Under the pieces are notes generated by a model. That model did not search any database and had not been told where the DNA came from. It was given only the letters and a program-made list of their open reading frames with translations. From Escherichia coli (lineage in GTDB: Bacteria; Pseudomonadota; Gammaproteobacteria; Enterobacterales; Enterobacteriaceae), in NCBI RefSeq assembly GCF_046105845.1, contig NZ_CP151004.1: a DNA stretch of 64,000 nucleotides; one strand, 5' to 3'. Position numbers and translations under genes: made by a program. This document shows positions 2,792-38,486 of the stretch, one piece after another (within the stretch, counting starts at the first letter, position 1; every line of letters starts with the position of its first letter).

Positions 2792-4387
<1,596 letters not shown>

Positions 4388-35967: not shown

Positions 35968-36858
35968 ATGATCAAGAAGACAACGGAAATTGATGCCATC
36001 TTGTTAAATCTCAATAAGGCTATCGATGCCCACTACCAGTGGCTGGTAAGTATGTTTCACAGCGTAGTCGCGAGAGATGCCAGTAAGCCAGAAATAACGG
36101 ATAACCATTCTTATGGACTGTGCCAGTTTGGTCGGTGGATTGATCATCTGGGGCCACTCGATAACGATGAATTACCTTACGTTCGGCTAATGGATTCTGC
36201 CCATCAACATATGCATAACTGTGGTCGGGAATTAATGCTGGCTATTGTTGAAAATCACTGGCAGGACGCGCATTTCGACGCCTTTCAGGAAGGGTTGCTT
36301 TCTTTTACTGCGGCATTAACCGATTACAAAATTTATTTGCTGACGATCCGTAGCAATATGGATGTTTTGACGGGATTGCCGGGTCGTCGGGTTCTTGATG
36401 AATCCTTTGATCATCAGTTACGCAACGCTGAGCCTCTGAATCTTTATTTAATGTTGTTGGATATTGACCGATTTAAATTGGTTAATGATACCTACGGGCA
36501 TTTAATCGGCGATGTAGTACTACGCACCCTGGCAACTTACTTAGCCAGTTGGACGCGTGATTACGAAACGGTTTATCGCTACGGGGGGGAAGAATTTATC
36601 ATTATTGTTAAAGCGGCTAATGATGAAGAAGCATGTCGTGCAGGTATCAGAATTTGCCAGTTAGTCGATAACCATGCCATCACACATTCTGAAGGGCATA
36701 TCAACATTACCGTGACTGCAGGTGTGAGTCGCGCATTTCCTGAAGAGCCTCTGGATGTGGTCATTGGAAGAGCGGACCGGGCAATGTATGAGGGTAAGCA
36801 AACCGGAAGAAATCGCTGTATGTTTATTGACGAACAAAATGTGATTAACCGAGTTTAA
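35968..36858 (+). CDS. dgcZ: Zinc-sensing diguanylate cyclase DgcZ
   Basis: Start trimmed to ATG 35968 (MIKKTTEIDAILLNLNKAIDAHYQW...), AAAGGAG RBS, 296 aa; N-terminal CZB zinc-binding domain, C-terminal GGDEF domain with RYGGEEF. Confidence 0.9.
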   Translation: MIKKTTEIDAILLNLNKAIDAHYQWLVSMFHSVVARDASKPEITDNHSYGLCQFGRWIDHLGPLDNDELPYVRLMDSAHQHMHNCGRELMLAIVENHWQDAHFDAFQEGLLSFTAALTDYKIYLLTIRSNMDVLTGLPGRRVLDESFDHQLRNAEPLNLYLMLLDIDRFKLVNDTYGHLIGDVVLRTLATYLASWTRDYETVYRYGGEEFIIIVKAANDEEACRAGIRICQLVDNHAITHSEGHINITVTAGVSRAFPEEPLDVVIGRADRAMYEGKQTGRNRCMFIDEQNVINRV

Positions 36859-36974
36859 GCTCCGTTTAACATTCATTGAGAAAACTGATGCTACTGTGTC
36901 AACGATCCGTTATCAGTGCAGGAAAATGCCTGTTAGCGTAAAAGCAAAACACAAATCTATCCATGCAAGCATTC

Positions 36975-37001
36975 ACCGCCGGTTTACTGGCGGTTTTTTT
37001 T
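36975..37001 (+). terminator. Intrinsic terminator downstream of dgcZ
   Basis: Stem ACCGCCGG / CTGGCGGT (loop TTTA) followed by TTTTTTT at 36995-37001. Confidence 0.7.
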
Positions 37002-37007
37002 CGCCGT

Positions 37008-37049
37008 CATAAAAATCAGGCCCCTTGTACACAACTGTAACAAGGGGCC
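37008..37049 (-). terminator. Intrinsic terminator downstream of mgtS
   Basis: Perfect 10-bp inverted repeat GGCCCCTTGT-(11 nt)-ACAAGGGGCC; on the minus strand it is followed by UGAUUUUUAUG. Confidence 0.65.
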
Positions 37050-37076
37050 GGTTAGGTGAGGGATTATCTCCGTTCA

Positions 37077-37172
37077 TTAGTCATCCCATTTGTGGCTGAA
37101 ATACGCGGCCAGAAAACCAGAAAATAAAATTATTCCCAGTACGGCCATAAAAACATTCATATTACCCAGCAT
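37077..37172 (-). CDS. mgtS: 31-aa small inner-membrane protein MgtS (YneM)
   Basis: Minus-strand ORF MLGNMNVFMAVLGIILFSGFLAAYFSHKWDD with GGAGG RBS 7 nt upstream; exact match to the MgtS sequence as I recall it. Below the ORF-track length cut-off. Confidence 0.85.
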   Translation of the reverse strand: MLGNMNVFMAVLGIILFSGFLAAYFSHKWDD

Positions 37173-37298
37173 TATTTGCCTCCGTTTATGGTGTGGTGTG
37201 TTTCCTCGCTTACCTTAATTTTCATCTCAATGAGAAAGATATTAGCAGAGGTAACCTAAACGAAGGCTGAATTAAATCTTTATTGTGTTCGACTTAAA

Positions 37299-38486
37299 TC
37301 AACAAAGCGCGGGCTGCCCCCACGGTCTTGCACGAATTCCTTTTAACATCAGCACCCACGCAGCAATAATCACCAACGCTAAGATGATAAACAGCGAGGA
37401 AGGCGGCAGGTTGGTTAGCACTACGCCACTCACTAATGGGTTAATCGCGGCACCAAGCCAGCCTAAAGACTGGGCGGAAAAATAGCTGGCTTTCATTCCT
37501 GGCGGCGCAATATGGTCAATCAACATATACTCGCCCGGCGCATAAATGATTTCACCGACAGTAAATACCGCAGCTGACATACCCCACAATAGCAGGCTGT
37601 TGCCGGAAAAAATAAAACCGACCAGACCGATGACGAAACAGAGGGTGCCTGCTGTCATCAGCGTGCGGATGTTAGCCGGGTTAAGTCGCCGGCCCACGGA
37701 ATATTGCAACGTAACTACCATGGCAGCATTCACTGGAAGAACAACCGCGACCACCTTTTCGGCAAAATCCCCATCAGCAATCACCATCACATATTGTGAA
37801 ATGCATGAAGCAAATGCGCCGCTAACAAAAGAAGCCAGAAAGCCAGAGCAGGTAAACCACAACAGTGCTTTATCTTGTAATAAAACTTTCGGCGACCAGG
37901 CACTGGCTGTTTCCGTGGCGATGATTTTCTCGCTGCGCTTTACCCAAATTTGAATGAAAAGCATGGGAAACGCGGAACAGATAGCTGCCAGCCAAAAGGG
38001 CAGATTGATGCTCTGCATCACCAACAGCGTGCCGAGCGGCGGACCGATGGTCCAGCCAATGTTGAGCATGGTGTAGTTGATTGAGAAGATTTTCGTTTTG
38101 CTGGTGGACGAAAGATTGTCGGCAAACCAGGCTTTCAACACAGTAGCAAAAACGGAATAGGCGCAGTTAATGAGGGCAAAAAAGAGCACCACCAGCGTCA
38201 CGTTATTCACTAAAGGAATGGCAATAAAACCGCAGGCGAAGGCGGTAATTGCCAGTAACATATAGCGTTTCTTGTCGAACTTATCCGCCAGGATACCAAA
38301 ACCGAGGCTAAAAACGACGCCAATAGTGAGCGCAATTGTCATCGCATAACCGATTAGATCGACACTCAGGCTGTACTGGCGACTCAAGTAAATGGTCATA
38401 AACGGCAGCGTAGCGCCGCGTCCGATGGTTAATAACAACGACGAGGCAAGAAGGGCGCTGGTAGAGCGTCGTAGGGATAAGTTCAT
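37299..38486 (-). CDS. ydeE: MFS-family exporter
   Basis: 395-aa 12-TM MFS protein; position between mgtS and eamA matches ydeE. Confidence 0.9.
   Translation of the reverse strand: MNLSLRRSTSALLASSLLLTIGRGATLPFMTIYLSRQYSLSVDLIGYAMTIALTIGVVFSLGFGILADKFDKKRYMLLAITAFACGFIAIPLVNNVTLVVLFFALINCAYSVFATVLKAWFADNLSSTSKTKIFSINYTMLNIGWTIGPPLGTLLVMQSINLPFWLAAICSAFPMLFIQIWVKRSEKIIATETASAWSPKVLLQDKALLWFTCSGFLASFVSGAFASCISQYVMVIADGDFAEKVVAVVLPVNAAMVVTLQYSVGRRLNPANIRTLMTAGTLCFVIGLVGFIFSGNSLLLWGMSAAVFTVGEIIYAPGEYMLIDHIAPPGMKASYFSAQSLGWLGAAINPLVSGVVLTNLPPSSLFIILALVIIAAWVLMLKGIRARPWGQPALC

Follow-up and report, generated by a model that had tools for sequence, protein, structure and literature searches.

The low-magnesium mgrR–mgtS locus of an Escherichia coli genome and the position of its small RNA MgrR

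The region at positions 36960-37298 of the window, i.e., of the whole 64,000-nt stretch of E. coli DNA that was analysed (contig NZ_CP151004.1, assembly GCF_046105845.1), is almost certainly part of the canonical E. coli dgcZ/mgrR/mgtT-mgtS/ydeE low-magnesium locus, with an intact MgrR small RNA (sRNA) and nothing anomalous about it. The locus is already known and is essentially K-12 base for base, and nothing new is claimed for it. The original prediction had held that MgrR could not be delineated next to mgtS; however, the full-length mgrR gene is found at 36904-37001 on the plus strand, with 97 of its 98 nt identical to K-12 and an Rfam E-value of 1.8e-64. The apparent MgrR puzzle is an error of gene order combined with a mislabelled terminator, and the significance of the analysis is that of a correction only, MgrR being intact and canonical in this genome. 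Sequence identity, gene order, the structures of both terminators, and the conservation of promoter elements across genera are directly supported, and those defining features of MgrR, MgtS, and both intrinsic terminators that can be tested in sequence are all present.

Gene order and the MgrR small RNA

The segment 36800-37400 of the window is 100% identical to E. coli strain VCSW7, whose RefSeq annotation, mapped to the window and combined with the list of open reading frames (ORFs), places the coding sequence of the diguanylate cyclase DgcZ at 35968-36858 (+). At the other end of the locus, ydeE, encoding an MFS exporter, occupies 37299-38486 (−), as given by the ORF list and the RefSeq annotation. 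Comparison of the window from about 36840 to 37310 with reverse-complemented MG1655 reveals one substitution in 470 aligned bases, and this sole difference from K-12 is a T>C change at 36907, that is, at mgrR position 4, where other genera mostly have C in an alignment of 63 sequences. The curated MG1655 record has, in this order, ydeE (+), mgtS (+), mgtT (+), mgrR (−), and dgcZ (−), and mgrR, at 1622817-1622914, overlaps the end of mgtT and lies on the dgcZ strand between mgtT and dgcZ. Gene order, strands, spacing, and sequence in the window are the same as those of K-12 mgrR (b4698), mgtS (b4599), and mgtT (b4775), and nothing of substance is different; the comparison of spacing with K-12 that had been recommended earlier thus returned an identical gap and an identical order. 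Moreover, mgrR and mgtS have been described as "transcribed convergently" and as PhoPQ-dependent (bioRxiv 10.1101/2021.06.30.450655).

The identification of mgrR, the gene of a 98-nt PhoP-regulated and Hfq-dependent sRNA, relies on K-12 identity, on Rfam, and on folding. K-12 mgrR maps full length to the window, with its 5' end 45 nt past the dgcZ stop codon and only the 3' 42 nt of the gene inside the interval first inspected. The original prediction had conceded that a full-length mgrR match in a comparison with 37000-37400 would mean that the gene had simply been overlooked, and such a match does exist, at 36904-37001. In addition, an Rfam scan of the whole window gave a single match, STnc560 (RF01407), at 36870-37083 (+), which reaches 281.9 bits against a gathering threshold of 55 bits, spans model positions 1-214, and falls in the gap between dgcZ and mgtS and not in that between mgtS and ydeE. 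The model, with its 214 nt, is about twice as long as the sRNA, and its match takes in 34 nt of promoter together with sequence antisense to the mgtS terminator and to mgtT.

The Rfam name leads to Salmonella, where STnc560 is an Hfq-enriched sRNA that converges with the yneM transcript STnc570, as mgrR and mgtS do in E. coli. Within one intergenic region of Salmonella, Sittka et al. (2008) reported an STnc560 of ~90 nt with 29-fold Hfq enrichment and, oppositely oriented, an STnc570 ("yneM ORF") of ~190 nt (PMC2515195). Judged by position, orientation, size, and sequence, STnc560 is MgrR, an equivalence that no paper found in the literature words outright.

Folded as a single sequence (MFE -25.9 kcal/mol, z=-2.89), MgrR forms a 5' stem-loop (36908-36938) and the terminator, with an unstructured stretch between the two; the 5' stem-loop is seen only in this single-sequence fold, the MAFFT/RNAalifold consensus being devoid of it owing to indels. 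The A-rich (ARN)n stretch at ~36940-36955 and the pairing region U55-A68, which corresponds to 36958-36971, are both identical to K-12, the motif and the pairing positions having been taken from the literature (PMC6239178), and the invariance of the seed across species is partly circular, since the MgrR seed also served as the search pattern. At the 3' end, the Rho-independent terminator at 36975-37001 (+) consists of an 8-bp stem, a TTTA loop, and a T8 run, and is recovered both by the terminator scan (stem at 36975-36994 plus T-run) and in the MFE fold. It is kept in 27 out of 27 diverse sequences, where most pairs are invariant and the innermost pair shows G-C/A-U covariation. This hairpin had been attributed to dgcZ but is the terminator of MgrR itself. 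Read-through from dgcZ may well also end there, since it is the first intrinsic terminator downstream of the dgcZ stop codon (36858).

Promoters and terminators of the two convergent units

The promoter elements described here were compared among 69 loci from species-representative genomes, almost all of them of Enterobacteriaceae, which were found by a 20-nt MgrR seed pattern and provided 63 distinct mgrR and 33 distinct mgtS upstream regions for alignment. Upstream of mgrR, a candidate PhoP-box region at 36852-36879 (+) holds the hexamers AGTTTA (36852-36857), CGTTTA (36863-36868), and CATTGA (36874-36879) in 11-bp phase, followed by a putative extended −10 element, TG-n-TACTGT, at 36889-36897, whose TG and TA vary little or not at all among the 63 sequences and which precedes the annotated 5' end, G36904, by 6 nt. 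The module conserved across genera comprises CGTTTA at 36863-36868, (C/T)(A/G)TTGA at 36874-36879, a 12-nt spacer, and TG-n-TAnnnT, with GTTTA and TTGA conserved in at least 70-90% of the 63 sequences. The most upstream hexamer, AGTTTA, is a third in-phase element that E. coli has in addition and that overlaps the dgcZ stop codon (TAA, 36856-36858). The pair AGTTTA-N5-CGTTTA (36852-36868) was also considered as the mgrR box and was rejected, because in the alignment it is the downstream pair, CGTTTA-N5-CATTGA, that is conserved and that ends at the canonical distance of 12 nt from the −10 element. Direct hexamers in 11-bp phase that end 12 nt before the −10 element are the layout of E. coli phoP P1 and of PhoP-activated promoters.

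On the minus strand, the mgtS promoter at 37239-37273, delimited from the alignment of 33 sequences, would consist of a candidate PhoP box, AATTCA-GCCTT-CGTTTA (37273-37257), a 12-nt spacer, and the −10 element TAATAT (37244-37239), with a transcription start predicted from the sequence at ~37231-37233. The motifs (A/G)TT(C/A)A-N5-(T/C)GTTTA and TAnnAT keep their position and phase in the 33 distinct upstream regions, which represent about 8 genera, and the candidate box has 4 mismatches to the consensus. A yneM-lacZ fusion has been reported to be PhoP-dependent (PMC3536696). Directly upstream of this promoter, within the final codons of ydeE, there is also a terminator-like hairpin, CGTGGGGGCAGCCCGCG followed by CTTTGTTGAT, at 37324-37308 (−).

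Like canonical PhoP-activated promoters, in which (T/G)GTTTA-N5-(T/G)GTTTA replaces the −35 element, mgrR and mgtS share direct hexamers in 11-bp phase, but with respect to the canonical box both are degenerate, namely CGTTTA-N5-CATTGA for mgrR and AATTCA-N5-CGTTTA for mgtS. A scan for KGTTTA-N5-KGTTTA with up to 2 mismatches returned 16 matches in the window against 18 expected, i.e., no enrichment; it matches 36852-36868, spuriously matches the MgrR terminator (36981-36997), and misses the mgtS box. Since the pattern is unenriched, hits a terminator, and overlooks the mgtS box, a match to the consensus does not by itself constitute evidence, and conservation across genera was used instead. 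Thus, the PhoP boxes of mgrR and mgtS are assigned here by position and conservation and their exact limits, as well as the mgtS start site, should be regarded as putative.

The product of mgtS (yneM; 37077-37172, −) is a 31-aa membrane protein, MLGNMNVFMAVLGIILFSGFLAAYFSHKWDD, which is present in the ORF list and in RefSeq and matches the NCBIfam model small_MgtS (NF033842) with 80.6 bits against a cutoff of 35, covering positions 1-31 of 31. The gene is nucleotide-identical to K-12 and is preceded by the Shine-Dalgarno sequence GGAGG at 37179-37183 (−), 6 nt before the ATG and conserved as GGAG across genera, so that both the reading frame and the ribosome-binding site named in the original prediction are borne out. 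Downstream, the intrinsic mgtS terminator at 37009-37049 (−), GGCCCCUUGU…ACAAGGGGCC + UGAUUUUUAU, is recognized by folding and by covariation, with a stem at 37049-37019 and the UGAUUUUUAU run extending to ~37009. It forms within a 131-nt fold of MFE -42.6 kcal/mol (z=-3.53) and shows compensatory changes in 5 out of 9 pairs across genera (21 sequences); a simple terminator scan missed it because of a bulge and a long apical region. The earlier description of two back-to-back terminators therefore holds, one being the plus-strand hairpin with its T8 run at 36975-37001 and the other the minus-strand hairpin 37049-37019 with its U-run. The U-runs of both terminators face each other ~7 nt apart (37002-37008), and the ~190-nt yneM transcript of Salmonella (STnc570) fits termination at the mgtS hairpin (PMC2515195).

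Two PhoP-activated transcription units converge at this locus, MgrR on the plus strand and a chain of small ORFs on the minus strand, namely CDS58 (17 aa), mgtS (31 aa), and mgtT (34 aa), which are linked by a TAATG stop/start overlap at each junction. Under low Mg2+, phospho-PhoP would bind the phased hexamers that stand in for the −35 element of each promoter. MgrR would then base-pair through 36958-36971 with targets such as eptB, ygdQ, and pitA, while the small-ORF transcript would start just downstream of ydeE and mostly end at the hairpin 37049-37009, and MgtS would stabilise the MgtA importer. For the PhoP dependence, Hfq binding, targets of MgrR, and function of MgtS, this scheme draws on the literature on K-12 and Salmonella, in which the induction of MgrR by PhoP and low Mg2+, its dependence on Hfq, and its repression of eptB, ygdQ, and pitA are known.

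The sRNA had initially been sought between mgtS and ydeE, and it could be argued that this gap is where MgrR belongs and that the sRNA is absent, truncated, or no longer recognisable in this strain, the locus differing from K-12. The gap (37173-37298) does measure 126 bp, as previously stated, and Rfam and terminator scans found no sRNA, terminator, or Rfam match in it. However, the MG1655 gap (1622520-1622645) is equally 126 bp long and identical in sequence, the annotation has mgrR on the opposite flank of mgtS, between mgtS/mgtT and dgcZ, where the literature also has mgrR and mgtS converging, and the window contains an mgrR gene that is 97/98 identical, all of which leaves the idea of a missing sRNA with practically no likelihood. 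What the gap does contain is the mgtS promoter, the leader, and CDS58. Somewhat less remote, but still very improbable, is that the hairpin at 36975-37001 is primarily a dgcZ terminator and that MgrR is a fragment derived from the 3'-UTR of the dgcZ mRNA instead of an independent transcript. No other intrinsic terminator occurs from the dgcZ stop to this hairpin, so that dgcZ read-through probably ends there, but the conserved candidate PhoP box and extended −10 element stand directly before the annotated 5' end even in genera with a gene other than dgcZ upstream; in Salmonella, unlike in E. coli, this gene is ydeI. Moreover, an mgrR-lacZ fusion whose mgrR part is just the promoter up to +10 depends on PhoP (PMC3536696), which also argues for an MgrR transcribed from its own promoter.

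The third alternative concerns the sequence at 37184-37205, which had been put forward as a PhoP-box-like element. The repeat itself is present, as GTTTA…GTTTC with a GGTGT GGTGT repeat, and reads GGAAACACACCACACCATAAACG on the mgtS strand; its interpretation as a PhoP box, be it for mgtS or for a divergent mgrR, is extremely improbable. One half-site is a perfect GTTTA and the other a GTTTC, but they are spaced 16 nt apart and not 11, and no KGTTTA-N5-KGTTTA match with up to 2 mismatches occurs there. Furthermore, the element is neither upstream of nor overlapping a −35 position, since it is situated past the conserved −10 element of mgtS, between the latter and the mgtS ribosome-binding site, and inside the translated CDS58. 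It belongs to a CA-rich leader stretch that is restricted to Escherichia, whereas the AATTCA-N5-CGTTTA/−10 module upstream of it is conserved, and no divergent sRNA exists at this place. The element at 37184-37205 is not a PhoP box.

Small open reading frames and antisense overlap on the mgtS strand

The leader of mgtS includes a 17-aa ORF, MKIKVSEETHHTINGGK, at 37172-37225 (−), whose translation is identical to CDS58 in supplementary file 5 of PMC12350097 and whose TAA overlaps the mgtS ATG. Translation of CDS58 was detected in 2025 by a transposon-reporter (PIRT-seq) study, in which the tagged protein was faint, with a weak western signal (PMC12350097). Its ATG, which E. albertii and E. whittamii lack, would be no more than about 6-8 nt away from the transcription start predicted for mgtS. 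Within the same 5' leader, the block AAGGTAAGnGAGGAAAC, at ~37200-37216 (−), is strongly conserved in about 8 genera, and the CDS58 frame is not. Coding by CDS58 was considered as the cause of this conserved 5'-UTR block and was rejected, since CDS58 lacks its ATG outside E. coli. As a speculation, the GGA motifs in the block and in the Shine-Dalgarno sequence could form a binding site for a protein or an RNA, of the CsrA type.

The third ORF of the chain, mgtT (34 aa; 36973-37077, −), is an annotated ORF that the original prediction overlooked and that lies in the interval assigned there to the mgtS terminator; it appears in the ORF list, in RefSeq as mgtT/b4775, and, with identical sequence, in supplementary file 5 of PMC12350097 as CDS59 (MgtT). 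Its ATG overlaps the mgtS stop codon (TAATG), its frame crosses the mgtS terminator hairpin and U-run, and its end overlaps the final 29 nt of mgrR in antisense. The mgtT stop codon, at 36975-36973, is located ~36 nt past the mgtS U-run, in sequence antisense to the MgrR terminator, and, since it is beyond the U-run, an mgtS transcript that ends at its own terminator carries a stop-less mgtT frame. MgtT has been detected by Ribo-seq and by SPA tagging (bioRxiv 10.1101/511675), and it has been described as PhoQP-dependent and with no phenotype so far (PMC11429745).

MgtT has no match among the NCBIfam models. Across genera, the start overlap of mgtT is kept, the ORF length ranges from <15 to 83 codons, the C-termini are unrelated, and the conserved residues coincide with the terminator stem. 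Even between two E. coli-level sequences, 7 out of 34 MgtT residues differ, whereas MgtS is identical. The notion of mgtT as a conserved protein beyond Escherichia was consequently discarded as unsupported, in view of its variable length, its unrelated C-termini, and the location of its conserved residues in the terminator stem.

An RNase III-sensitive position at MG1655 1622816, attributed by the authors to antisense transcripts (PMC5371410), corresponds to window position 37002, exactly between the 3' ends of MgrR and mgtS. Full-length MgtT would need terminator read-through, possibly aided by ribosomes, because the mgtT stop codon lies beyond the mgtS U-run. It is conceivable, albeit rather unlikely, that this requirement is part of a wider arrangement in which the antisense RNA could couple both PhoP outputs reciprocally and mgtT would be mainly a regulatory frame. 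In such a case, the mgtT read-through RNA would be fully complementary to the terminator and 3' end of MgrR and might act, for example, through cleavage of the duplex by RNase III or through convergent transcriptional interference.

Distribution, annotation, and related systems

The 98-nt mgrR sequence is present in 5414 out of 5426 complete E. coli genomes and is covered to at least 80% in 5413 of them, while the 601-bp region 36800-37400 is matched in 5416 of the 5426, with a coverage of at least 80% in 5023 only. Hence, ~390 E. coli genomes carry mgrR but differ in its flanks, which fits the published remark that the CDS58-mgtST neighbourhood differs in about 11.7% of isolates (PMC12350097). 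The convergent mgrR/mgtS arrangement also occurs in Citrobacter, Salmonella, Kosakonia, Phytobacter, Pluralibacter, and Yokenella. In Enterobacter, Lelliottia, Leclercia, Silvania, and Huaxiibacter, mgrR was observed with an intact promoter and terminator and with no mgtS within several kb (L005, L008, L009, L018, L021, L025, L034, L036-L038, L040, and others among the 69 loci); therefore, the linkage of mgrR and mgtS is not universal in Enterobacteriaceae.

A base-pairing RNA and a small protein that respond to one stress signal from one short locus are likewise found in SgrS/SgrT. However, unlike in SgrS/SgrT, MgrR and mgtS are two separate convergent transcripts and not one RNA; a fused MgtS-MgrR RNA is known only as a synthetic construct (bioRxiv 10.1101/2021.06.30.450655).

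RefSeq PGAP annotation of VCSW7 (NZ_CP082357.1) and of other E. coli includes mgtT, as well as mgtS in VCSW7, and contains no mgrR feature; among the records examined, an mgrR ncRNA feature is found only in the curated MG1655 record. Thus, an automated or memory-based reading can easily miss or misplace MgrR, because PGAP omits mgrR and Rfam lists it as STnc560, a name from Salmonella, with a model about twice as long as the sRNA.

Some individual loci deserve mention. Enterobacteriaceae bacterium RIT691 (L015) harbours two copies of the MgrR seed plus terminator, at 1439-1458 and 3033-3052 of that locus, 1.6 kb apart, and the copy adjoining mgtS is devoid of the conserved PhoP-box/−10 promoter and of the 5' part of the sRNA, which looks like a partial duplication. 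Additionally, a metagenome-assembled genome labelled as Caldithrix sp. (L007) carries an mgrR–mgtS region identical to that of E. coli, and that of Chryseobacterium sp. 18061 (L058) is identical to that of Citrobacter sp. 18056 (L032); both cases probably reflect contamination or mis-binning in public assemblies.
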